DNA from: Promethearchaeati archaeon SRVP18_Atabeyarchaeia-1
Lineage (GTDB): Archaea > Asgardarchaeota > Atabeyarchaeia > Atabeyarchaeales > Atabeyarchaeaceae
Assembly (NCBI GenBank): GCA_037308085.1
Contig: CP147779.1
Coordinates: 1,600,001-1,664,000, forward strand
Direction: 5' to 3'
DNA: 64,000 nt
Positions 20,080 through 40,613 of the stretch are shown here, in pieces. Below the pieces are notes generated by a model, which saw nothing but the letters and a program-made list of their open reading frames with translations, was not told the origin of the DNA and ran no database searches. The stretch's first letter is position 1. Each line of letters starts with the position of its first letter. The position numbers and the translations under genes are program-made.

Positions 20080-21753
20080 TTGATGAACAGGAACTTAGCA
20101 ATCATCCTAGTTGTTGGCGTGATCGTCTTTTCCGCAGGCTTAACTCCACTGATTCTTGTGAATGCTCAAAGCCCTAGTCAGACATTCTCGACAACTTCGT
20201 CTGATGGCACCCGAATAGTGTATGACGTAACTATGAGACCAGGTACGCCGATGAATGCGCCCGTTGCGGTACTGATCCACGGCTTCTCCGGAAACAGGAT
20301 AATGATGAGGATGATGGCCTTCGCTCTCGCTGACAAGGGCTTCATCTGTGCATCGATCGACCTTAGGGGTCATGGATCAAGTGAGGGTGTTATGGATGGA
20401 ACCGGCAGTTTCGTCGATGATGTGTACGCTGTAATCGGAGCTCTTCACGCAAGCGGGATAGGAAACACGTCAAGACTACTTCTGGTTGGGCACAGCATGG
20501 GCGGAGGGGTTGTGCTCACCCTCGGTACGCAGCTCACATCAGTCGCCGCCATCATCGGCGTTGCACCCGCATCATCACCAGCCTGGGTTAACACTACAAC
20601 TCCGAAGAATCTACTGCTAATAATCTCAACCGGCGATTCAGTGATCAACGCCACCACCGTGAAGCAGACATTCAACAAATCCGTAGGCTTGCCATCTTGG
20701 AACCCCAACACGATCTACCATGTAAATGGAACCGATAGAGAGCTCTTCGTCGTGGCTGGTCCAGACCACCTGGGCATACTCTATAATGCGGCGGTAATAA
20801 GCCAGATCGTATATTGGGCAACTACTTACGTGATGGGAGCAGGACAGCCTCTAGGGACAAGCCCAGACGTGATCTACTTGGCTGTGTACGTATCCATCGC
20901 TGGCGGCGTAATCATGATCATCTCGGCATTGGCCTTGGTGCATGAGAAACTATGGCAACAGAAGAAGAAACCAGAAACGAAAGGCAAGACAGATGTCAAG
21001 AACCTGCTCATATTGGGAGTCCTGGCAGTGCTCCTCGCAGGAGTCTTGGGTTCAGTCGTTGCTGTCGTGATGACATTTGTCTTGGTCTTGGTAACGCCTC
21101 TCTTTGTGACCAACTTCCTAATGGGGATTTTCCTTGGAAATTCGATAACGCTAGGAATTTTTGCAATGATGAAGTTGAGGCATAGTAGCAAGGAGTTCTC
21201 GTACCGTAGATTCCTCAGAGAATCAATCATTCGACCATCAGTCAAGGTGGACCTTGCGTCTGGAATTGTGGGAGCAATAGCTTTCATGGCGCTGCTTGCA
21301 GTGACTTTCGGCGGCAATACGACACTGACGTTTTCAACTGCATCAATTAGGCTGATCTCTCTACCTCTCTGCATACTGATCTTCGGCCTGGTCTTCATGT
21401 TCTACGAGTCGTTTTTCAAGGCTGTTGCAAGACCGTTGATGGCCGATGGAGCCAAGCGCATGGTTCTCTCAGTGATCTTTGAGCTCATAGTACTCCTAGT
21501 GGCCTTCGTGATTGAACTGGTGATCATAACAACGCTCTTGTCATTAGCTATGCCATCATTGGGCGTAGGCTCACTCATACTTGGGCTGGGGCTTCAGATG
21601 GTTCTACTCGTCCTTGTTCCTCTGTCGATAGGCGTACTATCAGCCGAGCTCTTCTACGGGAAGACAGGTGGATGGCTCACACAGATCATAATAGGTGCGC
21701 TCCTCTTTGCCACGCTGACCGTGGTATTCTCGCCTGTCCTGTACCTCTTCTGA
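20080..21753 (+). CDS. Alpha/beta hydrolase with signal/TM and polytopic membrane C-terminus
   Basis: HGFSG, DLRGHG, GHSMGG, PDHLGILY; about eight C-terminal TM. Confidence 0.9.
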   Translation: MMNRNLAIILVVGVIVFSAGLTPLILVNAQSPSQTFSTTSSDGTRIVYDVTMRPGTPMNAPVAVLIHGFSGNRIMMRMMAFALADKGFICASIDLRGHGSSEGVMDGTGSFVDDVYAVIGALHASGIGNTSRLLLVGHSMGGGVVLTLGTQLTSVAAIIGVAPASSPAWVNTTTPKNLLLIISTGDSVINATTVKQTFNKSVGLPSWNPNTIYHVNGTDRELFVVAGPDHLGILYNAAVISQIVYWATTYVMGAGQPLGTSPDVIYLAVYVSIAGGVIMIISALALVHEKLWQQKKKPETKGKTDVKNLLILGVLAVLLAGVLGSVVAVVMTFVLVLVTPLFVTNFLMGIFLGNSITLGIFAMMKLRHSSKEFSYRRFLRESIIRPSVKVDLASGIVGAIAFMALLAVTFGGNTTLTFSTASIRLISLPLCILIFGLVFMFYESFFKAVARPLMADGAKRMVLSVIFELIVLLVAFVIELVIITTLLSLAMPSLGVGSLILGLGLQMVLLVLVPLSIGVLSAELFYGKTGGWLTQIIIGALLFATLTVVFSPVLYLF

Positions 21754-21923: not shown

Positions 21924-22072
21924 TCAAATCTGGTCGATATCATCGATGAATTGCACGGCCAGCCTCAACATGTCTCAAAGGTAGCCAACTTTTCTGGCGT
22001 GTCTTCACGATTGTGCCAAACAACCTAGAACCCATCCTCTGCCAGACCGATAACTGAGGTCGTCTTAGGCCC
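21924..22072 (-). pseudogene. Displaced, decayed duplicate of the 3' end of the M28 peptidase gene (23272-24507)
   Basis: Translates as TSVIGLAEDGF*VVWHNREDTPEKL../DMLRLAVQFIDDIDQ versus intact TSVIGLARDGFPVVWHNREDTPKKL..DMLKLAVQFIEDVDQ; one stop and one deletion. Confidence 0.9.
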
Positions 22073-22121
22073 CTATTATTCTGTTCTTGAGAATGGGTGG
22101 TATTTAGGGTTCCGTGGGCAA

Positions 22122-23255
22122 ATGCCTAGCGAATATCGAGGCAGATCAGATTTGGTCCATGAGTTGAATATTGATAACTTGTCGTCTCAAGAGTGGAGTT
22201 ATCTTCACGGGTTGTTTCTGACAGATGGGTGCTCGAATATTTCGAGGATCAGAGGCTCGCCTATTGGTTATCGAGTGGTATTCTATTTCGGTGGAAAGAG
22301 CGATGATGAAAAGGCTTCAGCCCAAAAAGTTGCAGGACTATTGAAGCGTATTGGACTGAACCCAAGGATCAAGGCAGTTCCAGGAAAAAGGATGATAATA
22401 GTGCAAGTATTCTCGAAAACCCTCATGAGATTTCTGCCAGACAAGAACAAGCTGACGATAGATGCCAAGGAGAGACAGAGATTCTTTGAGGACAATGGAC
22501 TCTGTGATACCGGTGGCAAGAGAGGAATTGCGTTCTTGGCAGGTCTCTTGGATGGCGATGGATACTGTGCGGTGGATGTGGCGACTTGCCGCTTTGGGTT
22601 GTTGCAGCAATAGAAGTAGGGTTTTACTCAGGGCAAGTATCCGTTTCTCGTTGACTATATGAGGAGGCTCATTGGGTTCCTTTCTCAAGATAGTGTGAAT
22701 GTTAGGATGCGCAATGACGGCTGTTCTGAGGTACGTATTTGTAAGCCTGGGATTGTGGCATTACTCAATGCTGGGATCGCGAAATACTCTTGGAGAGTGG
22801 GCGTCTGGCTGAAGAGAATAGCCGCGGCTCGGAGCGAAAGAGCGAAGTACTATACTGTCGGGCAGGCTGCACGTGAATTGGGCGTCATGTGTAAGACTGT
22901 GCGAAAGTGGCTTAGAATGGGCAAAATGAGGTGGATCAGAAGAGAGGGAACCAGAGTAAGAAAGAGAACCAGAACGGTGATGGGTCGATCCTTATCATGG
23001 TACTATATTCCTATTGACGAGGTAGTCAAGCTTAAGGCTTCCTTGGAAGCCGAGAGGCAAAGTGTGCGAATGCTAAAGAATGAAGGGGTGGAGTTTTCGA
23101 GACTAGCTAAAATGTTGGGTGTCCCATATTCTACGCTGTATTGCTGGTATCAGGGCGGAGTGTTTCAAGCAATGCTGGTTAAGGAGAGGAATCTGCGAAT
23201 CTTGATAGTGCCGAAGAGAGAAGTCGAAAACATCAAGAGAAAAGCGGAGAAATGA
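22122..23255 (+). pseudogene. Double-motif LAGLIDADG endonuclease-like protein with two C-terminal MerR/excisionase-type HTH repeats, interrupted by in-frame TAG codons at 22611 and 22617
   Basis: YLHGLFLTDGC and FLAGLLDGDG; ORFs 22122 and 22659 are in the same frame and linked by TAG AAG TAG GFTQGKYPFLVDY; YTVGQAARELGV..TVRKW. Confidence 0.85.
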
Positions 23256-23271
23256 AAGGACCAAGTCTCTC

Positions 23272-24507
23272 CTACTCTCTTTTCCTTTCATCTGCCCCTC
23301 TTTGATCCACGTCTTCAATGAATTGCACTGCCAACTTCAACATGTCATACAAGTTCTCGCTGCTCAGCTTCTTGGGAGTATCTTCACGGTTGTGCCAGAC
23401 TACTGGAAATCCATCTCTCGCCAGTCCTATCACTGAGGTTGCTCTGATTCCCTTTTTTGAGTAGAATGCTGAGTCCGTTCCTCCCATTGAGAACGGACGT
23501 ATCTCAACAGGGTACTTGATACCACACTTGGAGGCTGAATGTTGAAGCATCTTGCAGAGTTCCATTGAGTGCTTCGTCGTATACATCTTCTCCTCGTTCA
23601 CAATCACGAACCTACCAACTCCAGCGGTGTCAAAGTTTATTACATAGGTGTTCCATTTTTCGAGTTCCCTTAGATGCCTGTCTACGAATCTTTTTGAGCC
23701 ACGCATACATTCTTCACACCCATGCGAGATCAATAGAACGCTCGTATTGCGTGGTCTGTTGCCTGAAAGATACTCGGCGACTCCGAGGGTGACCGCAACG
23801 CCTGAGAGGTTGTCATTTGCCCCCAATGTTTGTGTGCCAGACTTCAACCCGAGTCTCAATGCTACAGTCAATATCACACCTATAATGGGCACTAGAATGA
23901 GGAGATCAAAGAGTCTGAATCCCAGAAGGGTCCAGTTCATGTAGAACAGGTTGAAGTACTCGCCCGAGATCTTCGCGACATACACGGCGAAGATCAGACC
24001 GATAACTACTATTATGATGGTTATGAACCTGGATGACTTCGCCCTCCACTTTATTGGAATTGGGAATTCGACTGGGCTATCGTGGTGTGCCCCAATTATG
24101 ACAGTCGCCTTTGCCTTTCCCTTCGCTTTGATTTTCCCATAGATATTGGCGGAGGTTCTCTTCCTGAATAAGGGGTCGGCGAATTCTCGCAGGTGATTCA
24201 TCTCCAGGACGTAGCAGAGTAACCCCAGGACCGTGAGCAAAACTGAAACCCAGGTGAACCACAAGTAGAATCCTGCGGCCAAAAGCTGCAGTACAGGAAT
24301 GATATTGAGGATCCCTAGGAACCCTCCAGGCCTACACGTGAAAGGCTCAACTTTCACCTCGTCGCAGAACCTCTCATACTCCACCTTTATCACCTGGCCG
24401 GCTTTCGACTCGTTTTCGCTGGTGCCAGGTCTTGACCCTATGTCCTTGCAGACGCGCTCTATGAAGCCAAACATATAATCAACATAGGACTTCTTATCCA
24501 GCTTCAT
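23272..24507 (-). CDS. M28 family peptidase with internal TM insertions
   Basis: GAHHDS, GANDNLSG, GCEE, NFDT, GTD, WH. Confidence 0.9.
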   Translation of the reverse strand: MKLDKKSYVDYMFGFIERVCKDIGSRPGTSENESKAGQVIKVEYERFCDEVKVEPFTCRPGGFLGILNIIPVLQLLAAGFYLWFTWVSVLLTVLGLLCYVLEMNHLREFADPLFRKRTSANIYGKIKAKGKAKATVIIGAHHDSPVEFPIPIKWRAKSSRFITIIIVVIGLIFAVYVAKISGEYFNLFYMNWTLLGFRLFDLLILVPIIGVILTVALRLGLKSGTQTLGANDNLSGVAVTLGVAEYLSGNRPRNTSVLLISHGCEECMRGSKRFVDRHLRELEKWNTYVINFDTAGVGRFVIVNEEKMYTTKHSMELCKMLQHSASKCGIKYPVEIRPFSMGGTDSAFYSKKGIRATSVIGLARDGFPVVWHNREDTPKKLSSENLYDMLKLAVQFIEDVDQRGADERKRE

Positions 24508-24750
24508 CGTAATCCCTCACTACCCATGTTCGCGCTGACCAGCTACATAATTGTTTAGTTTCATGGTTCTGTTAACTCTTCGAGTGATGAGTCAACTGGG
24601 TGGGTAGCTCGCTTTGTCTACGATGGGAGGGGGTTGCGAAGAGAGAAGAAAGCGGGACGAGGTAACTCAAGTTCAGCAATAAGCATTTATTAGCCGCGTG
24701 GGCTGTTACGTGGTGAATATACTGTTGACGCGCGCCCGAGGGCGCCGTTT

Positions 24751-27321
24751 GTGCGAATCAAGGTGGTCATCGAAGAGATGGTGAAGGTATTGAAGGATGA
24801 GATCCCAGAAGTTGGGAGCGTTTCGTTTGAGAGTCAGGCATCGAAGCCGGTCCCGTATGAATGGGGGTTCGGGTCCACCCCGCGTACGGCCCGCCTCAGA
24901 GCCGCCCTCAAGTGGAAGGCGGCCGTCGTAAAGGACTTTGAAAACATATTCATGGGGCTGGCGAAGTGTGGGTTCAGAAACGGGGAAGACATCAAGGTTG
25001 ATATAGACCGCGCGAGGCTCATAACTGAGTCGTACAAGCAGACCGATGGGCAACCGTGGGTCAGCCGCGTCGCCAAGGCTTTCGTTCATCTCTGCGAAAA
25101 CATGCCTATCTACATCAAGGATGGCGAGCTGATTGTCGGTGATCCCAACAGCGCGCCGGACGAACTGCGGTGGCACCCAGAGATATGCTCGCACTTCATG
25201 TCCGGCGCCGTCACCGACGGAAGCTTCTCAAGTATGGTCACCGACGCTGAGAGGGAGGAGATTGTCTCCAGCATCTGCGCGTTCTGGGACGAAAGGAGCA
25301 TCGCCGCAAGGATAAGGGCGGTCCTGCCCCGAATCTCGTGCCAAGACATATTCGAGGGGCTCGCCACCCCCATAGAGGCGAAGCTGTGGGAGATGGGAAT
25401 AGTAAACCCGTCTTACGATTACTCTGCCCTCTTCAAGGAGGGGCTAAACGCGCGGATCGAGAAAGCCGAGCGCAGGTTAAGGGAGCTCGAGAGTGGCACC
25501 CTCGGGATTCCGCCTTCCCAGTATGTGGAGAAGAGAAACAACTGGGAGGCGATGATCATGTGTGGCAAGGCTCTAATTCGTTTTAGCCAGCGCTACGCCG
25601 AGCTCGCGAGGAAGCAGGCGCAGCTGGAGCGGGACGCCATGCGCCGGCAGGAGCTGGAGGAGATAGCCGACGTGCTGGAGCGCGTTCCGGCCAACCCCGC
25701 AAGGACATTTCGCGAAGCCCTCCAGTTTTACTGGATCGTAGAGGTCGCCGCCAAGTTCCTCGCCGTGTACGGACACGGCGGCGGTCACAGGTTTGACCAG
25801 ATATTCTTCCCCTATTATGAGGCGGACATGAAGAAGGGCAAGCTCGCCCGCAAGCAGGCTTTGGAGCTCATTGAATGTCTCTTCCTGAAGATACAGGAGG
25901 TCGGCATCGCCCTCGAGTACCCCGTGACATTCACCGGCAAAGCGGGCGGCGAAATATTCTACACGATAAACATTTGCGGAAGCAAGAATAACGGCGAAGA
26001 CGCATCCAACGATCTGAGCTGCTTGGTTCTGGAGGCGATGTGCAACCTCCGCATCAACCAGCCACCGATAGCGGTTCTCTACCACAAGAACATCTCACCA
26101 GCCATCGTGGAAAGGGCAATAGACCTTCTTCACCTTGGCACAGGGCATCCTTCTTGGTTTAACGAAGATCTCCTTCAGGAATTGATAATGCTACGTGGTT
26201 ACTCTCCGAAGGATGCGAAGCGTGTTACGGTGGGGGGCTGCGTCACGCCTCACATCACAGGGAAATACCTGATTACAACTGGGACACCGGGCATCGGAGG
26301 AATGATCCTTCCAAAAGTGCTCGAAGAAACCTTGTATGACGGCGGTTCTACGGGAAACGAGGGCAGACCTGACAAACCGAAGACGAAGGATCCTAGGATT
26401 ATGACGTCCGCCGACGAATTGCTGGAAGCGTTCCTCGAGCGCGCCCTCTTCTACTGCAAGGAGATGACCTTCGCGTGGAACCTCGCCCAAGAAGTGCTAA
26501 TGGCAACCAGTCCAGATCCCTGCAATTCCCTACTCCTCGATGAACCCCTAGACAGGGGAATTGACCTGAAGAAGTTGCACAAGGAATACGATACGTATCC
26601 TGCTGTTTTCGCCTTGGGATTGATGACTGTTGCGGACTCGCTTGCCGCTATCCAGAGGCTCGTTTTCGACGAAAAGAAGTACACGATGGACGAGCTCATA
26701 ATAGCGTTGAAGAATGATTGGAAGGGGTACGAGGCGATGCGTCAGGAGTTCCTCAACGCCCCGAAGTACGGCAACGACGACGACTACGCCGACTCGTGGG
26801 CTGTGAAGCTAGCCACACACTTTGAAAACACGATCAGCCAGTTGAAGGACGCGTGGGGGTACAAGCTACTGAGCGACGGCGGAACCGCCGCGGGCTACCA
26901 GACCGTTGGACTGACATGTGGCGCCACGCCGGACGGGCGACATGCGATGACACACCTGACGGACGGGAGCCGTTCCCCGATGGCGGGAGCAGACAAGAAG
27001 GGTCCAACGGCTGTGCTGAATTCAGCGGGTAAGATACCATTCACCCACATGGAGCTCTTCAACCAGCGCTTCATGCCCACCTTTCTAGAAGGCAAGAACA
27101 GAGAGCTCTTCGCGGCGTACCTGAGAGTGTGGTGCGAGAAGCGCACAATACCGCACATACAGTTCAACGTCGTGGACAGTGCCCTTTTGAGGGATGCGCA
27201 GAACCACCCTGAAATGTATACCGACTTGCAGGTTAGGGTTGCGGGGTACAGCGCGTTCTGGATCGACCTACCAAGAGGAACACAGGACAGCATAATCGCC
27301 AGAACAGCGCACAGCTTCTAG
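24751..27321 (+). CDS. Glycyl radical enzyme (PFL superfamily), substrate unknown
   Basis: VRVAGYSAFW glycyl loop, GGCVTP Cys loop, APKYGNDD, ATPDGR. Confidence 0.92.
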   Translation: MRIKVVIEEMVKVLKDEIPEVGSVSFESQASKPVPYEWGFGSTPRTARLRAALKWKAAVVKDFENIFMGLAKCGFRNGEDIKVDIDRARLITESYKQTDGQPWVSRVAKAFVHLCENMPIYIKDGELIVGDPNSAPDELRWHPEICSHFMSGAVTDGSFSSMVTDAEREEIVSSICAFWDERSIAARIRAVLPRISCQDIFEGLATPIEAKLWEMGIVNPSYDYSALFKEGLNARIEKAERRLRELESGTLGIPPSQYVEKRNNWEAMIMCGKALIRFSQRYAELARKQAQLERDAMRRQELEEIADVLERVPANPARTFREALQFYWIVEVAAKFLAVYGHGGGHRFDQIFFPYYEADMKKGKLARKQALELIECLFLKIQEVGIALEYPVTFTGKAGGEIFYTINICGSKNNGEDASNDLSCLVLEAMCNLRINQPPIAVLYHKNISPAIVERAIDLLHLGTGHPSWFNEDLLQELIMLRGYSPKDAKRVTVGGCVTPHITGKYLITTGTPGIGGMILPKVLEETLYDGGSTGNEGRPDKPKTKDPRIMTSADELLEAFLERALFYCKEMTFAWNLAQEVLMATSPDPCNSLLLDEPLDRGIDLKKLHKEYDTYPAVFALGLMTVADSLAAIQRLVFDEKKYTMDELIIALKNDWKGYEAMRQEFLNAPKYGNDDDYADSWAVKLATHFENTISQLKDAWGYKLLSDGGTAAGYQTVGLTCGATPDGRHAMTHLTDGSRSPMAGADKKGPTAVLNSAGKIPFTHMELFNQRFMPTFLEGKNRELFAAYLRVWCEKRTIPHIQFNVVDSALLRDAQNHPEMYTDLQVRVAGYSAFWIDLPRGTQDSIIARTAHSF

Positions 27322-27656
27322 CTGAGTCATCGACGCAGTTGCCAGTCGCTACTGGTGTGCCTTGGTATTGTCCAGGGTGCCCGCTTGCTGTGCAATTCAC
27401 ACGGAGGCTTAGTCATAATAAGACGGATCGAAACACTGTGCAAGGAAATGCTGCACCCCAAAATGTTTCTTGTGATCAGTACTCGTGTTGCATCCCGCGA
27501 TGGTTAACGCTCTTCCACGTCTCACGCCAAGTTGACAGAGCCCTGAAACATAAGGCTGAAATACTAGATTTGATCTACCACAAGAAGCTCACAATTTCTC
27601 AATTACTTGTTGGCGCTGCGGTTTAAGGGATATAGAGTATTGGAGGAGATTTCTCC

Positions 27657-28151
27657 TTGTCGCATGAAGAGGACGAAGTTGGGAAGCGGTCTGCACAGAT
27701 GGTAGGGCTGCTAAAATCAATGAGAGGAAAAGCAGGGCGGCTTTTTCCTGGGTCTCCATTCTCACAGTGGCTGAATGGTACGGTTGTGGATGCTAAGCGC
27801 GGGGAGATCGAACTGGAGTTTATCGTTCGCCCTGAAATGGCTAACCCGACAGGGCTTCTGCACGGCGGCATGCAGTGCGCTCTAATGGATGACACCATCG
27901 GAATAGCCGGCGCAACTTTGGGGTACGAAGGCTTTCTGATGAGTGTGGATTTTCACGTAGACTACTTGGGGACGGTCAAGGTTGGGGAGAAGGTCCGTGT
28001 CAAGGGGCAGATTGTGCGCGAAGGCAGGAAAATCGTTCACGCGATGGCGGAAATACACGACATGGTGGGAAAACTCGTTGCAGCCGGCAGCTCCAACCTT
28101 ACAAGAACGAGTTTCAGACCAGACTATGCAAGGCAATTAGAAAAAGAGTAG
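27657..28151 (+). CDS. PaaI family hotdog thioesterase
   Basis: NPTGLLHGGMQCALMDD. Confidence 0.9.
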   Translation: MSHEEDEVGKRSAQMVGLLKSMRGKAGRLFPGSPFSQWLNGTVVDAKRGEIELEFIVRPEMANPTGLLHGGMQCALMDDTIGIAGATLGYEGFLMSVDFHVDYLGTVKVGEKVRVKGQIVREGRKIVHAMAEIHDMVGKLVAAGSSNLTRTSFRPDYARQLEKE

Positions 28152-28289
28152 ACGCACAGTGGCTTGACGTATATTGTATGCAGGCTCGAGATTCGGGCAG
28201 TCCATTATTGTTTAGGCCAGGCGCCGATTCTACTTCTTCCTCTGAATCCCGTCTTAAGACGTATTCCTTCGCGGGCGATACAGACCATT

Positions 28290-28455
28290 CATCTACCAGC
28301 TCCGATCAAGTTACAGGAAGCAACCGAAATGCCGTTTCCCTTTGAGTCCTCGATGACGATTGCTTCTGCAAGAAACGTGTCATGGACGCCCCGCGAGAAT
28401 CCTTTCCTCTCGATATAGCCTCCAAGATGAAAACCGACAGGCGGGTTATATCGCC
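28290..28455 (-). pseudogene. Fragment resembling the N-terminus of neutral/alkaline ceramidase-like proteins
   Basis: DIT/PVGFHLGGYIERKGFSRGVHDTFLAEAIVIED with a frameshift and a stop. Confidence 0.4.
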
Positions 28456-28500
28456 GCCACTGTCACCAGCTCTGAGGCAACTTCTGCAGGTTGTTATGCC

Positions 28501-29328
28501 CTAAGTCTTGGAGGATCTTGCAAAAGCTAGTCTGAACTCTGACGCCACTTCCCGCGAGATGTCAAGATTGTTGTATCTCTTGTTTGCCCAGTCACGGAGT
28601 TGCTCGATTATTTCATGATGCGCTTCGTCAGGAACATTCCACGTGCCAGAATAGACTTTGTCGGCAAGGCCTTGAATTATCGAGTTGATGGTCACGTGTC
28701 CCACCCAGCTGTGGGTCTCGGGATCGGAGACAGTCCATCCGCTCCCCCTCAAGTACTTGATGGCTTCCTCTATGTCGGAGACCCCTAGTCTCCTGTAGTG
28801 GAACCCGTGCTTACCTCTTATCTCCTTATATTTCTCGTTAACCTCTGCTGAGACTCCTGTCCTGATGGACTCCCCAATAGCCATCGGCGCACCATCGCGT
28901 AGGACGCGCCCAGCCTCGCTCGCCACTAGATGCCAGTTTTGGATAAGATGCAACACTTGGAAGCAGAGCGCAGCATTGAAGCATTTGTCTCTGAAAGGCA
29001 GGTTCTGGGCGTCTGCCACAACGGGCTGCAGTCTGCAAAGCCATTCTCGCCTAAGCTTAGAGAGCATAAGCCGAAGCATCTCCTTGCTTACATCCACCCC
29101 GACTACCCTGAATCCTCGGACAGCCAGAGGAACGGAGAACCGCCCTGTGCCGGCGCCAATGTCAACGACCGACATGCCTTCCCCGCTACCTGCCTCAGAG
29201 AAGACCTCGCGAGATACCTCTATGCACACTTCATCTGACATTCTTCTAGTTGAGTCGTAAACCGGCGCTATACGCTCAAAAGACAGAGTGCCTTGATGCT
29301 GAATGCCGGAATTAGCCAACTCCGCCAT
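28501..29328 (-). CDS. Class I SAM-dependent methyltransferase
   Basis: VDIGAGTG, GVDVSKEML, ADAQNLPF. Confidence 0.9.
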   Translation of the reverse strand: MAELANSGIQHQGTLSFERIAPVYDSTRRMSDEVCIEVSREVFSEAGSGEGMSVVDIGAGTGRFSVPLAVRGFRVVGVDVSKEMLRLMLSKLRREWLCRLQPVVADAQNLPFRDKCFNAALCFQVLHLIQNWHLVASEAGRVLRDGAPMAIGESIRTGVSAEVNEKYKEIRGKHGFHYRRLGVSDIEEAIKYLRGSGWTVSDPETHSWVGHVTINSIIQGLADKVYSGTWNVPDEAHHEIIEQLRDWANKRYNNLDISREVASEFRLAFARSSKT

Positions 29329-29604
29329 CCTCTCCTTTTCCGATCCTACCCCTCTTTCATGTTCGCCGAGACTCCATTTCTCGACACCTTGAAATTGGCC
29401 GTACGTTCGATATATGCATTCCCCTCTCGCCGCAAATTGATTCTCGACGTGCGGTCAAGAAAGGAGTACTTCATAGTCGTGCACCGACTGCATCCGCAGG
29501 AGACTAAATAACGGGCAGACATCCGCATCTCGAATCCATGTGCCCGACGAGCCAACATGTGATGCCAGGGAGAACCTTAGAATTAGTACGCTTAGGGGTC
29601 CTTT

Positions 29605-30519
29605 TCATAGGGTGAGTTCCTCAACTTTCTTCATGGCCTTGTTTATCTCTTCTAGGGTCAAGTTGTTCTCAAGGATCTTGAGCCTCTTATCTTCGATGGT
29701 GAAGGCGCACTTCTTTACTTGGTTTACCTCTGCAGTCTGGAGAGCTTCTTCAGCACCCAGCCCTTCAGCTGATACAGTCTTCTCGATAGAAGGCGCCTCT
29801 TTGCTGATCTGGAAGACCTTCACCTGGCCCCGTTGACTAATCTCTACACTCACTTTTCCTCCAAGAGTCTCTACAAAAGCCAGAGTGTAGACAGCGGCCA
29901 CCTTGTCGTACTCCCGTTCCTTGTACCTCTCACGCATCGTCTCCCTTTCCGCAATTATTTCGGGTGCCCTTCCAAATTTCTCCTCAAGCGCTTTTGAAAC
30001 TTCCTGAAACTGAGGCGGGGCTCCCGTGAAACCTCCAAGTTCGCGCATGGCAGTTGGAACCTTTATGCTGGCTCTCGCAAGCGTATCCTCTTCTAGGAGT
30101 TCAATCTTCTTTCTGAAGAGCGCTTTCACTTCAGCGAAGGTGTCTTTAGCCTGCTTGTCTTTTGCGAGGTCGGCTTGGTTTATTTCCACTATCTGGAGTT
30201 TCTTGGTTCCCAGCTTGCCGATCGGATACGAGATGTTTGGAAGCTTATAGCCTTGCGATGAGACATCTGCCGCCTTTCTGCGTGCGATGGCCTTAGTGAT
30301 CCCGTCGACGCCTTCTCCAATCCAAATGTAGAGACGCTCGTTCTGCTCGTCGATTATCAGGGCAGCGCTGTCCTCATTCAGGCTGGCAGGAGACCACCTT
30401 ACCGGGACGACTTCCTTTTCGGGGTTGACTTTCAACATCAATAGATAGTAGTCTTCCTTGGGTCTGAGAGACAAACCTCTATCTCCGCCGCTCAAGCGAA
30501 TTTCCTCCCTCACAACCAT
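29605..30519 (-). CDS. Gelsolin-like domain protein with unknown C-terminal region
   Basis: ASLNEDSAALIIDEQNERLYIWIGEG...AIARRKAADV...IVEINQ fits the gelsolin repeat pattern. Confidence 0.7.
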   Translation of the reverse strand: MVVREEIRLSGGDRGLSLRPKEDYYLLMLKVNPEKEVVPVRWSPASLNEDSAALIIDEQNERLYIWIGEGVDGITKAIARRKAADVSSQGYKLPNISYPIGKLGTKKLQIVEINQADLAKDKQAKDTFAEVKALFRKKIELLEEDTLARASIKVPTAMRELGGFTGAPPQFQEVSKALEEKFGRAPEIIAERETMRERYKEREYDKVAAVYTLAFVETLGGKVSVEISQRGQVKVFQISKEAPSIEKTVSAEGLGAEEALQTAEVNQVKKCAFTIEDKRLKILENNLTLEEINKAMKKVEELTL

Positions 30520-30602
30520 GAATTCACAAGTATCTCGGAGTATCCGTAGGGTAGTACTACCCTATGTTACTCCCATTAATAATACCTTTCTCCACGAGAT
30601 CT

Positions 30603-31115
30603 TCAAATCATAATCTTCTCGTAACAATAGAACGGGAGTTCTCTCCTGGGGAAATGTAACTGACCAACTCGCCTGTACCCGCGCTTTTCGTAGAGCCCCA
30701 AAGCCCTCGGATTGCCGCTGTAAGCATCCAATCTTATGGAAGCATACCCCTTGTCGGTCGCCAGTTTCTCTGCTTGGTCAAGAAGTTTTCCCGCGATTCC
30801 TTTCCTGTGCCATTTCGGATTCACGGCCAGTCTATGAATCGCCATGATTCTTCCTTCTTGAATTGACCAGCCTATGCCCTTGTATTCCGGAGGCTGAACC
30901 TCATTTATAGTGACGATACCTAGAATCTCGTCCTTTTCTCTAATTTCATAAAGAGATCCGCTCTTTATATCGCTTTGAAATATCTCGCGTGTGGGATAGT
31001 ACTCGTTCCACTGATGGATTCCGTGGGATTCCATATCTCTTATGCAGCCGTCGATTAGACTCATGATTCTGCCAATGTCACTTTCCTCAGCTAGCACTAT
31101 CTTCACTGCAAACAA
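30603..31115 (-). CDS. GNAT family acetyltransferase
   Basis: HRLAVNPKWHRKGIA, NPRALGLYEKRGY. Confidence 0.9.
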   Translation of the reverse strand: MFAVKIVLAEESDIGRIMSLIDGCIRDMESHGIHQWNEYYPTREIFQSDIKSGSLYEIREKDEILGIVTINEVQPPEYKGIGWSIQEGRIMAIHRLAVNPKWHRKGIAGKLLDQAEKLATDKGYASIRLDAYSGNPRALGLYEKRGYRRVGQLHFPRRELPFYCYEKIMI

Positions 31116-31557
31116 ACCCCTGTAGACTGCGAGCTCTCAGGTGTGGATAATCCCAACTCCGCGTCCCAAGACAACGATTCATTCCCAAACATATTTAGAA
31201 AGTAGCTAACGTCCCGAGTGTTACTCGAGTCAGACTTCAAGCGATGTACCGAGACTATGTTGGCAGTACCCTCTCTTATAATGCATCTCATTCAGCTGTT
31301 ACAGGCATGATTTGTCCAGTCTCTCAACGCTGTGATATCCTCTGAGTTTGGTCGACTCAGGCGGCGCCTGTATGGAAATACTTTCAATAATCGGAGAGCT
31401 ATGATCACTGTTTATAACTGAACAATTGAGTCGTTGTTTCATCAAATACTATTTAATTTGAGCGATCCATGTTATGGGACAGTGGATTGCCGGATCAAGG
31501 TTGATAGGTTTCGCCTTGTCTGGAGAGGAATAAGTGAATTAGAAGAGGTCTTTCTGC

Positions 31558-32457
31558 ATGAGGATCTATTTCGTGTATACCGGTGAGTTTGGGGAGAGAG
31601 TCATCGGTAATTTGGTGAACGATAGATCCTTCTGCAAGGTTTGTGGTGCCTCATGCACTGAGTGCAGGTGGAAGCCAAATTGGAGCTTCGCCGACAGAGT
31701 AGTAGGCGTCTCAACTGTACCAGACACTCTTCCCGTCATTGTTGACGACCCTGAAACCTACATGCCCAAGAATCCGCCCAAGTGTGACGTACTTGTTTCC
31801 ATAGGAATTCATCCTGACGTTGCCTCAACGTTGCCTCTGCTTGCAAAGCAGGCTGAGGCAAAAGCTGTCATAGCGCCTGTCGAAGACCCAAAGTGGATGA
31901 GCCGCAACATGCAAACCGAACTTGAGAAGGGGCTGGCAGAAATGGGAATCGAGAGCGCATTCCCAAAGCCCTTCTGCTCCCTGGAACCTACGGGAGGACC
32001 TACAATAGACTCATTCATAAAGGAACTGAGAATAGGGAGACCGCTAATGCATGTCACCCTTCAGGGTGCAAGAATAGCGGATGCCGAGGTTCTAAGATCC
32101 GCGCCGTGTGGATGCACGTGGTACATAGCGGAGACTATAAAAAACCACTCACTGATTGGATTGGAAGAAAGGATCGCATTGTCACATCACTCCTACCCGT
32201 GCACGGCGAGCATGGAAAACGATCCTGTGCTCAAAGAGAAGATCCTTCACAAGGCCGGGTACATGGCTCGAGAAGCGGTGAAGCGTGCAATTGACGAGTT
32301 CGTCTTGGCGCATCCAGAAGTCGAGCAGGAAGTCATGCAGGCAGTAGCGCTAACGGGAAAGGAGACGCAAGTACCGCGAGAAGTGACGACTGCGTCAGAC
32401 GCTGAAAGGGAAATTAGGGAGGTTTTCGCGGAGAATGCCGCCGAGAATAATCCCTGA
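31558..32457 (+). CDS. DUF166 family protein
   Basis: PKPFCSL, RSAPCGCT, HHSYPCTASM, ILHKAG. Confidence 0.85.
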   Translation: MRIYFVYTGEFGERVIGNLVNDRSFCKVCGASCTECRWKPNWSFADRVVGVSTVPDTLPVIVDDPETYMPKNPPKCDVLVSIGIHPDVASTLPLLAKQAEAKAVIAPVEDPKWMSRNMQTELEKGLAEMGIESAFPKPFCSLEPTGGPTIDSFIKELRIGRPLMHVTLQGARIADAEVLRSAPCGCTWYIAETIKNHSLIGLEERIALSHHSYPCTASMENDPVLKEKILHKAGYMAREAVKRAIDEFVLAHPEVEQEVMQAVALTGKETQVPREVTTASDAEREIREVFAENAAENNP

Positions 32458-32683
32458 GAAATGTAGGGGCTGCAACGACTGTGTAATAGTGTGCCCTAAC
32501 AAGATCATCTGCGTAGCGAACGGTAAGGCGAAGATCACCGAGCCGGAAGCGTGCATCGAGTGCGCGAATTGCATCGATAACTGTGGATGCGGCGGGATAA
32601 CTGGGGCAAAGGAGCGGCACGAAGGCTACCTTAAGGTTGCTCAAATAGCCTCCAGACGAATGTCACTCGTCAAAAAGGAGTAG
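32435..32683 (+). CDS. 2x[4Fe-4S] ferredoxin-like protein
   Basis: CRGCNDCVIVCP and CIECANCIDNC. Confidence 0.9.
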   Translation: MPPRIIPEKCRGCNDCVIVCPNKIICVANGKAKITEPEACIECANCIDNCGCGGITGAKERHEGYLKVAQIASRRMSLVKKE

Positions 32684-32739
32684 TATCACTCGTTTCGCGT
32701 AGCGGCGGCTCTGAGTTTTTCTGTCTCGGAAACCATTGC

Positions 32740-33081
32740 CTAGAACTTGGCTCTCATCCCCAGCGCACAGAGACCGAGTTGAATTACGTCAAAAGCCATC
32801 GTAATGAAGGCAAACATCAATCCGATTATGATCCCAGCGATGCTAAAGACAATTCCTGCGATGCTGATGAGCAGTCCAAGCTTGAAGCTCCATTTTCTGA
32901 GCTTAATCAAGCCATAGATTACAGCTATCCATATCGGGAAAAACGGAATGATGGAAACTGCCAAGAGAAGGTTCTGTGGGATCATAGCTAGGGCTCCGAC
33001 CTCGATGAAGGCATGTATGATCATATTGGTGATGAATGAGGCAAATGCGCCCGAGACTATAGTTCCGACTTGGGGGCTCAT
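32740..33081 (-). CDS. Hypothetical membrane protein
   Basis: Four hydrophobic segments, YGLIKLRKWS. Confidence 0.65.
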   Translation of the reverse strand: MSPQVGTIVSGAFASFITNMIIHAFIEVGALAMIPQNLLLAVSIIPFFPIWIAVIYGLIKLRKWSFKLGLLISIAGIVFSIAGIIIGLMFAFITMAFDVIQLGLCALGMRAKF

Positions 33082-33306
33082 AGCTATCCTCGCCTTGTCA
33101 CTGATTCCGAAGGGAATTGTTTCTGCTTCATATCAGACTCAACGGTTATATAGTTTATCTTCTTCAGACCATCCTCGCAATTACTTCCGAAACCATGAAC
33201 GATCAAGAGAAAGGATTTATAGCAAATAACCACCACTAGAAAGCCTAACGGTAAAGACAATTATGTCCAAAGTAAGTTCAGGCGGAATACAAAAACCGTT
33301 CACCTG

Positions 33307-33738
33307 GTGGTCATCTTGGGTGAAGAAGCTACTCTTCTTGACTTTAGGAAGATTCAGGAGATACTGTACTCGCTTTCGCGTGATTGCCCCGGAATATCGG
33401 GGAGTGCGGTTCTAACCAAGGACGGTCTGCCCGTAGCCTCGGTTGTTCTTCCTGAGGGAGTAGATGAAGCTATGCTTGCTGCGATATCCGCATCGATCCT
33501 GACAACTGGGAGACTTGCAGCAAACGAGCTAAGACATCAGGGCGGAGTCCAACGTGTGATTGTTGAGACGAAGGATGGAACCATAGTCGTGGCGGGAATC
33601 CCTGAAGCTGAGGCTGTGCTAACGGTGACTGCGTCAAGGGATACGAAGCTGGGAATGGTTTTCCTAACCATGGATAAGGCATCCAGAAAGCTCAAGGAGG
33701 AATTGACGAGGTTCCTTTCTTCAACTAGCAGGATTTAG
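33307..33738 (+). CDS. Roadblock/LC7 domain protein
   Basis: GSAVLTKDGLPVAS, LAAISASI, VIVETKDG, KLGMVF. Confidence 0.9.
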   Translation: MVILGEEATLLDFRKIQEILYSLSRDCPGISGSAVLTKDGLPVASVVLPEGVDEAMLAAISASILTTGRLAANELRHQGGVQRVIVETKDGTIVVAGIPEAEAVLTVTASRDTKLGMVFLTMDKASRKLKEELTRFLSSTSRI

Positions 33739-34820
33739 TGTCTTGGGAGTAGCTCGAAGCTTCTTATTACTTCACTCTTCATGTCGTCCAGCCCGCCCAA
33801 TTTCACTTTGTTGAGTTCCTTTACCGCTTCAAGTGGGCTCAGCTTGAGCATGTTTGCTGCAAGCTTGTAGTGTTGCAGGGTGTTGAGCTTCTCAGCGACC
33901 CTCTTCTCCTTGGCGCCAATCAGCTCCTTGAACATCGTTTCGGCCTCAGCGCTCTCTCCAAGCAGTTTGTACAGCATGGTACTCATCATGAGATTGTATG
34001 AGAACCTCTTGTAGTCGCTGGGTGACGATCGCCCGACGAGTAGCAATGGATCGAGATTCATAAGGGCAACCCTGAAGCCGACCGCGGCGTCTAGCAGTAT
34101 CTTGGATGCCTCTGGCACCAAGTCATTCTTTAAGAGGGAGACCACTTGGGCTACGCGGTTCTCCGAAGAGCGCTGCAGTAGAATCGACTTGGTTTCCATT
34201 GCAATTTCTCCCATTCCTGTCTTCGGAAGAAGATCGCTCAACTGCTCCAGCGAGGCGACATAGGCTGAGCCTATTCTCCCAAACGCCTCTGAAGCCTTCG
34301 CGTAGTCTTCCTTGTCGAAACTCTTCCTAGCTTCCTTTTCCAGCTCGATTATGTTCTCCCCAGTGCCGAGGATAGACCCCTGGGTCATCATTCTCTCTGC
34401 GTCGCTCCAAAGCTTAAGCGCCGCAAAACAGTCAGCGGCACCAGCATAGCTTGCAGCGGCTGCCCCGTCAAACCGTTTGCGCCCCACCTTTGCGTAGGCT
34501 TCGCCAGCCTTCTGATAGCAGTCTATGGCGTCACCCCAAAGCTGTGACTTGCGAAGTGAGTTAGCAACGAAGAGGAAAATCTTGCCGGCTTCTGAGAAAG
34601 CCCCATTCATCTCCAAGGTCTCGGCAGCCTCGATCAGCGAGCATGCCCAGCTCGCCAATTCTCCGTATTCGGACAGTGCGCTGCCATAGGCGAGGAACGC
34701 ATCGGCTGCATCAGAATAGCTCCCACGCTCCATGTATTTCGCGGCTCTATCTCTGATGCGGTTGGCTTCATCCATCTTCTTTGCCCAGGTTCCGAACTGA
34801 TCATCGGTGTCTGCACACAT
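33735..34820 (-). CDS. TPR/alpha-SNAP-like helical repeat protein
   Basis: Repeated A..F..A/AG..F/AIDCYQKAGEAY helices. Confidence 0.7.
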   Translation of the reverse strand: MCADTDDQFGTWAKKMDEANRIRDRAAKYMERGSYSDAADAFLAYGSALSEYGELASWACSLIEAAETLEMNGAFSEAGKIFLFVANSLRKSQLWGDAIDCYQKAGEAYAKVGRKRFDGAAAASYAGAADCFAALKLWSDAERMMTQGSILGTGENIIELEKEARKSFDKEDYAKASEAFGRIGSAYVASLEQLSDLLPKTGMGEIAMETKSILLQRSSENRVAQVVSLLKNDLVPEASKILLDAAVGFRVALMNLDPLLLVGRSSPSDYKRFSYNLMMSTMLYKLLGESAEAETMFKELIGAKEKRVAEKLNTLQHYKLAANMLKLSPLEAVKELNKVKLGGLDDMKSEVIRSFELLPRH

Positions 34821-35148
34821 GGTTCCAAGATCCCCATTTCACATTTGTTGGAAGCCTTGTAGAAATGGCTTAGCTAGATTAGCAATTGCTACTTTATAAA
34901 CTCAAAGGAAGAAGGCAGTTGATCGGAATCGGCTGTCCTCCGATCTCATATCCTCCTAGTGGTGAAAGAGAAACCGCAACTTCCACTCTATGCGTAGGCA
35001 CTGGTTGCAGGTGCAGGGTATTCCTTTTGCGAATACTGAAAATTAACCAAGGTAATATATTATTCCAGGATATTATACAGGGTAATATTTATATACCTGT
35101 CCTCACACTAAAAGAAGAAAAACAGCGTCTAGCACGACGACAAAGGAG

Positions 35149-35310
35149 ATGACACAAGACATGCTACGATGCGAAACATGCGGACGGCAGCTCACGTACG
35201 ACAAGGCAAACAGAGACATTAACGATGGCGGAAAGCCATTCCACTTCTGCAGCAGAGAATGCGAGAGCACGTGGAAGGAAACCATCAGAAACGTTTCTGT
35301 AGCTCATTAG
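35149..35310 (+). CDS. Small TRASH/YHS-type metal-binding protein (53 aa, not in ORF track)
   Basis: CETCG...FHFCSREC; AAGGAG SD. Confidence 0.75.
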   Translation: MTQDMLRCETCGRQLTYDKANRDINDGGKPFHFCSRECESTWKETIRNVSVAH

Positions 35311-35408
35311 AACGCAGGGCGCCTCAGCATTGAGCGCTCTAAGCGCTCGACTTTCCTCTGCTTCTTTCACCGAGCTGATCCGCATAGAAAAAGTGGGGAG
35401 AGGTTCAA

Positions 35409-35580
35409 CTAAGCGGTTCCAGACTGCCTTTCAACCTCAAAAGCAATTCGAACCTCAGCTCTGAATGCGGTCACCTGACTATTATCAACCTTAACTTCTA
35501 GTTTCAGAACTTGGGCCACGACTCCAACTCACTGCTTCGCCTGGTTGCCCAGTACTCCCAGTATGCTTCAGCCAAGTCAG
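35409..35580 (-). pseudogene. Displaced, decayed duplicate of the dodecin gene (37305-37508) 3' part
   Basis: LEVKVDNSQVTAFRAEVRIAFEVER versus intact FDVKIEDNKVVAFRAEVQIAFEVER; stop at 35529-35531, frameshifted upstream. Confidence 0.85.
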
Positions 35581-35703
35581 GGAGTAGAGAAAAGTGGATT
35601 CTTGCCGCTCTCTTCTCCAGCGTCAGATGCAAATGGTTGTATTAATAGGAAATTCCTGCACTTGATTCTTGTCGGATGCGAGCTCAACAGCTGAGGAGGA
35701 AGA

Positions 35704-37077
35704 ATGCGGCTGAACCCTTTGATGAATGTGGATGCACTAACAGGTCAGGAACGTAGCTACCTGTCAGGTTTGTTCTTTGCGGATGGATGTTTGAGCAGGG
35801 ACAAGCGTCTCCAAGAACAGCCAATCAGGTGCGTCGCCTACTCCCTTCAGGGGAATGAAGAGGAACTGGCGCACAGGGTCATTGCGATCATGGAGCGCGC
35901 AATGCTAAAGCCCCACTTGTACAGGGCGAAGGATAAGGATTGCCTCTACGTTGTTGCGAGTTGTACTAATCTTGGTGAGTTCTTCCCGAGCAAAGAGACT
36001 ATTTTGGCTGATGGTGAAGCGAGGCGAAAGTTTTTCGAGGATGGCAACTTGGTGTTTGATCTTGGGAATCGTGTTGCATTCTGTGCAGGTCTTCCTGATG
36101 GGGACGGGACATGTGAGGCCACCTTTACGGAGGTTCGCAGCAAGAGGGCGACAAGCGTGGGTGGCGTCCATGCGCGGTGACTTTTCACTCAGACTAGCTA
36201 TCCTTTTCTGCTCGACTTCCTTCGAGAGACACTTGAGAGCATCGCAGCTCACTCTACGAGTGACATCTGCCGTGAGGGATCGCTCTGCGGTGTGATGATT
36301 AAGATTGACGGAAGGCAAGCACTGCTTGGGGCTGGAATCGCCAAGTGGTCGTGGAAGGTAGGGACTTGGATGAAATCTTTTTCTGCTATCAGCGACGCCA
36401 AATGCGAGGAGAGGGCTGCAAGAGAGAAGCTGGCCGAGAACGGAGGGCTCAAGCTTGTTGATGTAGCTAAGAAACTAGGCGTCCGCCCTTCGATTCTGCA
36501 CCGTATGTACTGGAGTGGCCGATTGCAAGCCGAACTTGTACGTGAGAGAGCTGGCATCGGTCGCCTTGTCATTCCGAGGAACGAGGCTGAAAGGCTAACG
36601 AGTTTGCTTTCTGAGAGGAGGAGGGATCTGAAAAACGTCAAGGATGACGGTGGAGCAAAGCTCACGGATGTTGCCAAGACCCTTGGAGTTCCACAGAGTA
36701 CGCTGCGCAACTTGCGATTCCGCGGTGAGATGGAAGCTGTTCTAGTTCGGGGCGCTGGTAAGGGTGGTCTTGGACGCCTTTTCATACCTGTGAATGAGGT
36801 TGAGAGACTCACGAAGATCGTAAGCGACAATAGCGAGAATGCGAGCAATGCAGAGCGAAATGGAATATTACTAAAGGAAGCGTCAAAGATCCTTGGTCTG
36901 GCGCCCAGCACGTTGCGCAATTGGCGTCGTCGCGGAAAGCTCAATGCCACTCTTGTGCGGACGGGAATGGGTGTAGACCGATTAGTGATCCAGACAAGCG
37001 AGGTCGAGAGGCTTGAGGAGGAACTATCGAAGAAAAGGCGCCGACAAGAACAAGCGAAGCAGGCGCCTATCTGGTAG
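35704..37077 (+). pseudogene. Double-motif LAGLIDADG endonuclease-like protein with three MerR/excisionase-type HTH repeats, interrupted by an in-frame TGA at 36178
   Basis: YLSGLFFADGC and FCAGLPDGDG; same frame continues TGA LFTQTSYPFLLDF into ORF 36292; paralog of 22122-23255 (ALL.AGIAK.SW.VG.W). Confidence 0.85.
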
Positions 37078-37304
37078 GTTTTCTGTAGACGGACTACCAG
37101 TGAGCGTGAAGGCCCGTTACCAAAGTAGCGTCATCCAACCACGAGTCCATGCGTGCCATCCAGAGATGATCTGAGCTCAGTCCCTTCAATTCTTCTGTTG
37201 CGGAGACTGAGATCATTAGAGTGAAGTGAGATCAAGTTATCGTTCATGTTCCCAAAAAAAGAGATTGGATGAGTTAGGAACTCACACACGCGCTGCATCT
37301 CACT

Positions 37305-37508
37305 TTACCTTTCCACTTCGAACGCTATTTGGACTTCCGCCCTGAAGGCAACTACCTTATTGTCCTCTATCTTCACGTCGAATGCTCTTACGCTAGCTCT
37401 CTTGATTCCTCTGACGGTCTTTGCGGTTTCCTCAACAGCGTTCCTTACTGCTTCAGCAAATGATTCCTCGGAAATGCCGACAACGTCTATTAGTTTCCAG
37501 ATTGGCAT
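37305..37508 (-). CDS. Dodecin family protein
   Basis: KLIDVVGISEESFAEAVRNAVEE..KTVRGI...IAFEVE. Confidence 0.92.
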   Translation of the reverse strand: MPIWKLIDVVGISEESFAEAVRNAVEETAKTVRGIKRASVRAFDVKIEDNKVVAFRAEVQIAFEVER

Positions 37509-37622
37509 CTTATTCTCCTCCTGCCTAAGTTAACGCTGCATCATCTAGTTAAGCATGATGGTTGAGCGCCTCTCGAAAAAGGAGACTTGATGCAAGGGTG
37601 AGGCGAAACCACATCCCTTGGT

Positions 37623-38522: not shown

Positions 38523-38538
38523 TGAGGAAGCAAGTTAG

Positions 38539-38787
38539 TTATTCTGTGCTTATTACGCTTACCGGGCATGCATCTCTCGCGTCTTCAACACATGAAACCA
38601 GATCTTCTCCAACTTCGCCTTTGCCCGGCTCACCTTTTCTGTGTTTCGGAACAACGCTGGAGAGTGTATCTTCGTCCAACTTGAAGACTTCTGGACATGT
38701 CTGCTCACAGCTTCCGCAGGAAATACAATTGGCGCGATCTATTGATATCTTCGTGCTGATCCCCTCGAAAGCTCTGTGTCGCCACAC
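38539..38787 (-). CDS. Single-cluster ferredoxin
   Basis: CISCGSCEQTCPEVF...ACPVSVI. Confidence 0.9.
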   Translation of the reverse strand: MWRHRAFEGISTKISIDRANCISCGSCEQTCPEVFKLDEDTLSSVVPKHRKGEPGKGEVGEDLVSCVEDARDACPVSVISTE

Positions 38788-39122
38788 GTATCTAATATTT
38801 CGACCCTAGGCTTGGTGGATGGTTGGATCATGTGTATGGGAGTCGGAGGAGTCTTGATTCATATAAAGAGGATGTGTAACGATAGAACGTTTTGATGCCA
38901 TCTATGCCCATATGAGTGTAACCCGGAGCCTGCACACCGGGATGAGCGAAGGACGAAGAGCATAATAACGCTATCGCTCTCAAAGATTTCCTTGGGCACG
39001 CCTAGTCGAAAGAATCATGGTACTGCCAGTTTCCGGCATTGAGATCCTCTCGCAAAGGTCTACGAAAACTATTTGAGCTTCCCTCAAGCATAAGGGGAAG
39101 CCATAATTGAAACGAACACGGA

Positions 39123-40424: not shown

Positions 40425-40613
40425 ATACTCAAATTCTCTCCCTCTTTTTCTTTTTATAGGAATGAAGTCGTATCTACATAGCGTTGCAGGTGATCAGCTA
40501 TGGTGTTGAGGATCGATTCCCAAGAATACTCCCAAAGAATAGAGAAACTGAGGTCTCTCACCGAAAGAGAAGGGTTGGTTTTCTGCATATCATTAGGTGT
40601 CATTCGAGACTTA

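Follow-up and report, generated by a model that had tools for sequence, protein, structure and literature searches.

In a 64,000-nucleotide stretch of the genome of an Atabeyarchaeia archaeon (contig CP147779.1, positions 1,600,001 to 1,664,000; hereafter the window), we studied two genes that encode LAGLIDADG endonucleases with C-terminal helix-turn-helix (HTH) modules and that are interrupted in frame by stop codons. We refer to them as copy 1 and copy 2. Our results indicate that both are, very probably, members of a LAGLIDADG-HTH family caught in homing-cycle decay, broken by transitions that turned tryptophan codons (TGG) into stops. The source genome is the closed, manually curated 2.81-Mb genome of Ca. 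Atabeyarchaeum deiterrae-1 from wetland soil, which uses the standard genetic code.

In the course of events that we propose, the family would persist in Atabeyarchaeia through insertions at host-gene 3' ends. G-to-A transitions in the Ca. Atabeyarchaeum deiterrae-1 lineage, two TGG to TAG in copy 1 and one TGG to TGA in copy 2, at codons of strand beta-2 in the second nuclease domain, would then have left truncated products that lack the catalytic Gln, the greater part of that domain and every HTH module, which would place both genes in the degeneration phase of the homing cycle rather than under a regulated stop. That the stops fall on Trp codons would be due mostly to the codon itself: of the transition paths to a stop in these genes, half start from TGG, more than from any other codon, and the exact coincidence of the column in the two copies is most likely due to chance. 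Read in this way the finding is an ordinary one, of selfish nuclease genes early in decay, and it documents undescribed free-standing LAGLIDADG-HTH elements of Atabeyarchaeia that appear to be actively spreading, to reshape the 3' ends of host genes and to drag neighbouring genes along.

Stops on conserved tryptophan codons

The two copies encode homologous proteins (33% identity, E 2e-46) that both exceed the 22.5-bit cut-off for PF14528 (LAGLIDADG_3), copy 1 with 32.2 bits and copy 2 with 22.8 bits. Each carries several MerR/excisionase-type HTH modules; the Pfam search returned an HTH_17/MerR-type HTH for copy 1 and HTH_17 at 54.5 bits for copy 2. The original prediction, made from the DNA alone, held that the two frames are otherwise open and are stopped at the same homologous codon by stops one base from TGG, and this description was borne out. 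The TAGs at 22611 and 22617 (context GLLQQ*K*GFTQGKYPFL, asterisks marking stops) and the TGA at 36178 (GGVHAR*LFTQTSYPFL) are present, the second TAG and the TGA share an alignment column, and the remainder of each frame is open, over 377 sense codons in copy 1 and 457 in copy 2.

At each of the three stop sites the closest ortholog has TGG. The copy-1 ortholog (P0001/L088, 92% amino acid identity) reads QQWKWGFTQ, with TGG at both sites and G at 22612 and 22618, and the copy-2 ortholog (P0008/L089) reads SRWLFTQ, with TGG at the stop site. Since the orthologs carry TGG, the stops are the derived state; they are three G-to-A transitions (two TGG to TAG and one TGG to TGA) in the lineage of the source genome. 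That they are instead sequencing or assembly artefacts of the reference genome, for which we can cite only the general possibility of error in a metagenome-derived genome, is so improbable as to be practically dismissed. The original prediction had called for a check of this kind, and contigs assembled independently from other samples and studies (X2 records 10 and 16, X3 record 18) have 0 differences across the stops, so the stops are not assembly errors. Three Logan assemblies are likewise identical, with the TGA of copy 2 present, and Illumina, Nanopore and PacBio data all went into the curation of the genome (PMC11291895).

The source genome holds six paralogs of the family, four of them intact; there are ~20 copies in the sister Asgard metagenome-assembled genome LC30 and five in Atabeya-2 (Ca. 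Atabeyarchaeum deiterrae, Atabeyarchaeia-2). Among the 60 relatives searched, these two other Atabeyarchaeia genomes were the only positives and the family was not found in the 58 other Asgard genomes. Further members came from related metagenome contigs, together with one database protein named Njordarchaeota. The two papers that deal with the mobile elements and genomes of the Atabeyarchaeia lineage make no mention of LAGLIDADG genes, and the LAGLIDADG-HTH family is a lineage-restricted, free-standing and previously undescribed one.

At the main stop column, shared by the second TAG of copy 1 and the TGA of copy 2, all four intact paralogs have W in the paralog alignment, and the column is invariant in alignment A2. 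Among 26 members from the three Atabeyarchaeia genomes it holds W in 23, V in one and a stop in two, both of them the window copies, and nearly all of ~45 more metagenome members have W, none having a stop. The balance of W against stop at this codon, a comparison that the original prediction had suggested, is therefore W in ~65 of ~70 members from the three genomes and many metagenomes, with a stop in no member other than the window copies. The first TAG of copy 1 aligns two residues earlier to a less conserved W, which is found in the paralogs L002 (as QWKW) and L003; all three stops thus fall on Trp columns of the family. They precede an invariant Gln by four residues (Trp166) and six residues (Trp164), and the family profile aligns this Gln with Q47 of I-CreI, the catalytic Gln of that enzyme. 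Both copy-1 Trp residues lie in strand beta-2 of the second nuclease domain (strand E160-170 in the AlphaFold2 model).

An internal stop was also seen in one family member of LC30 (L019, contig G001:C169). This stop, a TGA in nuclease domain 1, occupies a variable column (R, W, Q or L in the paralogs), and the two candidate ancestral codons, CGA and TGG, are not distinguishable.

Decay weighed against other explanations

Each of the three lineages available shows its own kind of damage to the copy-1 element. Two TAGs interrupt it in the source genome; in L088 the loss of 1 nt at the position of window 23123 shifts the frame of the last HTH, and run X8 has the same indel; and L098 has a 16-nt deletion at about 22725-22740, in nuclease domain 2. 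Copy 2 carries a second damaging change, a Pro in the second LAGLIDADG helix (AGLPDGDG), where every other member has L, I or V and its ortholog reads AGLLDGDG; this Pro had already been pointed out in the original prediction. In copy 1, the two UAGs lie 6 nt apart, and the amount of full-length product would be negligible. These lineage-specific lesions, the Pro of copy 2 and the tandem UAGs, along with the failure to find recoding or editing machinery, are the grounds on which we favour decay. The two copies have presumably lost their function and would now be evolving neutrally. Of the two options that had been put forward for the stops, independent inactivation at a Trp codon during homing-cycle decay is supported, by TGG in the orthologs, different deletions in sister lineages and the Pro of copy 2, whereas the option of a programmed brake found no support. 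Different lesions among homologs had been named beforehand as telling against a programmed stop, and 1-nt and 16-nt deletions are what the homologs carry.

Several observations weigh against decay. Both window frames are, stops apart, perfectly open. The ratio of nonsynonymous to synonymous substitution rates (dN/dS) against the ortholog is 0.39 for copy 1 (synonymous rate, dS, 0.086) and 0.19 for copy 2 (dS 0.86), and it is similar on either side of the stops, with no clear downstream rise (C-terminal parts, 0.44 in copy 1 and 0.23 in copy 2); nor are the window copies any further from the family consensus than their orthologs. With dN/dS alike on both sides and no excess drift from the consensus, the stops appear to be young, and at such an age dN/dS and consensus distance neither show nor exclude relaxed selection.

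The coincidence in the position of the stops also exceeds what a simple null would predict. Besides the two window copies, only one other LAGLIDADG_3 match in the source genome has short open frames, a gene of a different LAGLIDADG family that adjoins the 16S rRNA gene. Opposite its single TAG (SVS*GTPPFV), the four homologs that could be aligned all have W (QGSWETP, QINWTIP, QLHWDVP and QENWSTP), so that every one of the four in-frame stops carried by the three broken LAGLIDADG genes occupies a conserved Trp codon. Of the transition paths to a stop in these genes, TGG makes up 42-50%, and 22-29% at a transition:transversion weight of 4; the probability that all four stops fall on TGG, estimated from codon counts, is ~0.05 (transitions only) to 0.004 (kappa 4), and the same-column and adjacent-W coincidences bring a further factor of ~1/56. 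Under these simple post hoc nulls the joint probability of the Trp pattern is ~1e-3 to 1e-4. When decayed paralogs across the whole genome are compared, no more than 13-20% of the single-step nonsense differences involve W, a rough estimate given that the paralog-based spectrum includes shadow open reading frames (ORFs) and that its repeat copies cannot be counted as independent. Listing all stops of the genome that lie in frame between long open segments gave mostly adjacent genes and was uninformative. We treat the Trp pattern as an unexplained coincidence and not as evidence of a mechanism, because it was noticed post hoc in a very large scan. It is nevertheless a testable oddity. Metatranscriptomes of the source soils exist (PMC11291895), and if they carried G at the stop sites, no earlier case of mRNA stop-codon editing or Trp-recoding would have been reported from archaea, and this one would come from the group most closely related to eukaryotes. 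Such editing or recoding at the window stops is unlikely.

One way to account for the pattern without a programme is that the hits are non-random, through selection against a harmful nuclease or through a local G-to-A mutational process at TGG codons, such as the deamination of template-strand cytosines while breaks made by the endonuclease are being repaired. The placement of all four stops on conserved Trp by G-to-A changes on the coding (+) strand would fit, as would the shared column in two paralogs 13.6 kb apart, the Trp codon hit in a third LAGLIDADG gene, the two stops 6 nt apart in copy 1, and the low joint probability against a genome-wide W share of only 13-20%. We nonetheless consider this explanation improbable, although less so than the others discussed here. 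No shared sequence context beyond TGG was found at the four stop sites, no domain of the cytidine deaminase (CDA) fold was found in the source genome, and copy 1 shows no G-to-A excess relative to its ortholog (13 A/G versus 10 G/A differences). The 5-methylcytosine-type motif reported for the source genome, RGCWGCY, does not fit the mutated sites (PMC11529989). The sister genomes lack the pattern, with their one clear internal stop, in L019, at a variable column, and the post hoc origin of the observation applies here too. A search for a donor of the TAGAAGTAG patch returned no longer match elsewhere in the source genome.

A brake that is programmed or leaky, in which near-cognate tRNA-Trp would read the UGA, or A-to-I editing would convert UAG and UGA to UGG, and a trickle of active nuclease would result, would explain why four of four stops lie on conserved Trp codons in open frames. 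Each stop is one transition from TGG, restoring the G gives the wild-type residue, the frames are otherwise intact, and the three TAG sites have U at -1, as do fungal editing sites. UGA is, moreover, read at a low level by tRNA-Trp in many systems. Yet the orthologs and ~70 relatives lack the stops and encode Trp or a different amino acid at the site; both stops of copy 1 are UAG, a codon not normally read by Trp-tRNA; the base at -1 of the UGA site is G instead of U; and the 81-nt contexts of the three window stops contain no hairpin or significant RNA structure (folding z -0.5, +0.55 and +1.16). No Rfam family reached its gathering score in the window and there was no match resembling a selenocysteine insertion sequence (SECIS). 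As for an editing enzyme, no TadA-like or CDA-fold domain was found: the deaminase domains PF14437 and PF00383 had no match in the closed genome, with positive controls in 12 of 14 genomes, whereas the search with PF02137 (ADAR type) was uninformative, having no match in the closed genome but none in the control genomes either. A-to-I mRNA editing is not known to occur in archaea. The published tRNA list holds, for the anticodons concerned, one tRNA-Trp(CCA) and one tRNA-Sec(UCA), without CUA or any other suppressor anticodon, in an incomplete list of 40 tRNAs; most tRNA genes of this genome are intron-split, which leaves tRNA lists incomplete, and the 22 genes found by ARAGORN, several of them doubtful, cannot serve to exclude a suppressor. 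The Pro in the catalytic helix of copy 2 and the frameshifts of copy 1 in sister lineages also speak against a brake. With stops not conserved in the family, no structure around them and no deaminase domain found, a brake released by readthrough or A-to-I editing is without support, and we regard it as highly improbable. The same very low standing applies to the broader proposal that Trp nonsense alleles are a reversible or leaky brake on selfish LAGLIDADG nucleases, acting through undiscovered RNA editing or through unusual decoding by the intron-split tRNA-Trp.

Only slightly better placed, and still very unlikely, is the explanation that the genes have been split into useful pieces, the part after the stops being kept as a stand-alone multi-HTH DNA-binding protein, a regulator or excisionase-like, and the nuclease discarded. 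Translation would restart at the ATG at 22659 in copy 1 and at the GTG at 36292 in copy 2. Open frames of 198 and 261 codons follow the stops in copies 1 and 2, the copy-2 piece is predicted as a protein (P0009) by gene callers, Pfam gives good scores to the C-terminal HTH modules, and C-terminal dN/dS is below 1 (0.44 and 0.23). That ratio, however, integrates a long period before the stops and says little of the present, a restart would keep half of nuclease domain 2, and the L088 ortholog is frameshifted precisely in the last HTH. A search for shorter family proteins returned only the window copy-2 fragment and one contig-truncated ortholog.

Two further candidates were rejected. Those who described the genome reported selenocysteine machinery and no pyrrolysine (PMC11291895). 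Insertion of selenocysteine at the copy-2 TGA was discarded on the grounds that the position is that of a buried hydrophobic Trp, not of a Cys, and that there is no SECIS-like match. A small intron removing the stops was discarded because the alignment shows no insertion relative to the paralogs.

Elsewhere in the source genome there are many decayed repeated ORFs, probably insertion sequence (IS)/transposase-like, for example at ~343,000, 557,000, 848,000 and 1,970,000, and their stops are mostly CGA>TGA, CAG>TAG and TAC>TAG. From these stop-riddled copies it follows that the genome bears a sizeable load of dead mobile-element genes.

Fold, mobility and neighbourhood of the family

The AlphaFold2 model of copy 1, built with Trp at the stops, has a pLDDT of 83.8 and a pTM of 0.72 and adopts the doubled alpha-beta-beta-alpha-beta-beta-alpha fold, with a TM of 0.71-0.74 to I-DmoI. 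The top Foldseek matches of the model were I-MsoI, E-DreI, I-AniI and I-DmoI (TMt up to 0.74), and the family profile matches I-DmoI and the I-DmoI/I-CreI chimera. The LAGLIDADG motifs of copy 1 read GLFLTDG and AGLLDGDG; both catalytic acids, D35 and D144/D146, are invariant across the family and are kept in copy 2 as well, despite the Pro in its second motif. Judging from the profile match, the modelled fold and the invariant acids, the intact members look like active monomeric LAGLIDADG endonucleases with extra HTH modules.

The features of the two copies and of their surroundings are collected in the table below.

Table. Positions of the endonuclease copies, their lesions and associated genes (window coordinates unless stated otherwise)
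Feature	Position	Strand	Remarks
Copy 1, LAGLIDADG-HTH homing endonuclease pseudogene	22122..23255	+	377 codons, two in-frame TAGs; start ATG 22122, terminator TAA 23253-23255
TAG for Trp164 of copy 1, first W of WxW motif	22611..22613	+	strand beta-2, nuclease domain 2
TAG for near-invariant Trp166 of copy 1	22617..22619	+	ortholog L088 with G at 22618
Copy 2, LAGLIDADG-HTH homing endonuclease pseudogene	35704..37077	+	457 codons, one in-frame TGA; start ATG 35704
CCT (Pro131) in second LAGLIDADG helix of copy 2, AGLPDGDG	36094..36096	+	ortholog AGLLDGDG
TGA for the same near-invariant Trp, copy 2 residue 159	36178..36180	+	ortholog codon TGG
M28 peptidase gene, host/target gene	23272..24507	-	from the ORF list; tail-to-tail with copy 1, inside shared block
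Decayed duplicate of the M28 peptidase gene end (last ~50 codons)	21930..22072	-	across copy 1 from the peptidase gene
LAGLIDADG gene of a different family, adjoining the 16S rRNA gene	genome 451360-452022 (L090:861-1523)		one in-frame TAG, 451675

Three observations point to mobility: the multi-copy, sporadic distribution of the family, a sharp contrast in identity around copy 1, and a remnant of a host-gene end beside it. The copy-1 block (21989-23287) shares 94.6% identity with the metagenome contig L088, against only 73% for the hydrolase gene upstream. In run X8, from another study, record 25 extends a block of ~93% identity to 24281, across the M28 peptidase gene. The duplicate of the peptidase end, found by tblastn with the peptidase C-terminus, is 74-80% identical and has one in-frame stop; it is probably the footprint of an insertion into the 3' end of the host gene. 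On these grounds the LAGLIDADG-HTH family appears to behave as a set of mobile selfish elements.

Taken as a whole, the segment 21989-24281 (copy 1 plus the M28 peptidase gene) matches contigs from a different population at 93-95% identity, with 73% for the upstream gene (20080-21753), and has the look of a tract around the endonuclease gene that was recently co-converted or transferred. The copy-2 ortholog (P0008/L089) is syntenic, in the same gene neighbourhood, intact and 73% identical at the amino acid level. Its dS from copy 2, 0.86, is markedly lower than that of the syntenic flanking genes, which are saturated (proportion of synonymous differences, pS, 0.66-0.83, window 30000-40500); the copy-2 element may have been exchanged after the species split. 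Run X8 contains diverged orthologous contigs in which the copy-2 ortholog is closer, at ~85% nucleotide identity.

Two other segments of the window vary among samples. At 26793-27154, within an 856-codon ORF (24751-27321), stretches of 126 to 360 bases are missing from the contigs of several runs and many loose contig ends fall at 26757-26793 and 27177-27179, which suggests a length-variable or repeated segment inside a large gene. At 27848-28044, runs X2 and X3 contain, at high depth, a variant contig that is absent from the source run and that has nine substitutions in a cluster and lacks 79 bases (27964-28044); this variant may be a second allele or a related element.

Comparison with known systems

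The window genes resemble the degeneration phase of the homing cycle in the model of Goddard and Burt, in which a fixed selfish nuclease gains stops and frameshifts, with lesions that differ by lineage. Premature stops have been described in intron-borne homing endonuclease genes of fungi and algae (PMC2585584, PMC4995192). Unlike those cases, the window genes are archaeal, chromosomal and free-standing, and all stops in the broken LAGLIDADG genes of the source genome are on Trp codons. Fungal stop-restoring A-to-I mRNA editing, which converts UAG to UGG during sexual development, shares with the window an in-frame UAG at a Trp position in an open frame; it differs in that here no ADAT/TadA homolog was found, there is no hairpin, the stops are not conserved, and one of them is a UGA with G at -1.

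In their mobility, the closest likeness is to the free-standing seg and mob genes of phage T4, which home without introns and co-convert their flanks. Like them, copy 1 lies between or against host genes, its block, which takes in the adjacent host gene, is much better conserved between genomes than the flank beyond it, and a duplicate of a host-gene end has been left behind. The T4 nucleases are, however, GIY-YIG or HNH enzymes in a phage host, whereas the Atabeyarchaeia family is of the LAGLIDADG type in an archaeal one.

As endonucleases, the intact members share with I-DmoI and other monomeric, two-motif archaeal LAGLIDADG enzymes the two LAGLIDADG helices with acidic residues, the doubled fold and the profile match. 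The Atabeyarchaeia proteins differ in being predicted endonucleases from free-standing genes, outside introns and inteins; unlike I-DmoI, they carry two to four extra C-terminal MerR/excisionase-type HTH modules and are multi-copy. The order of a LAGLIDADG scaffold followed by a C-terminal HTH is also that of WhiA, a domesticated regulator of Gram-positive bacteria. WhiA has lost the catalytic acids and is a single-copy, conserved gene, whereas the Atabeyarchaeia family keeps both acids, is multi-copy and sporadic, and appears to move between genomes.

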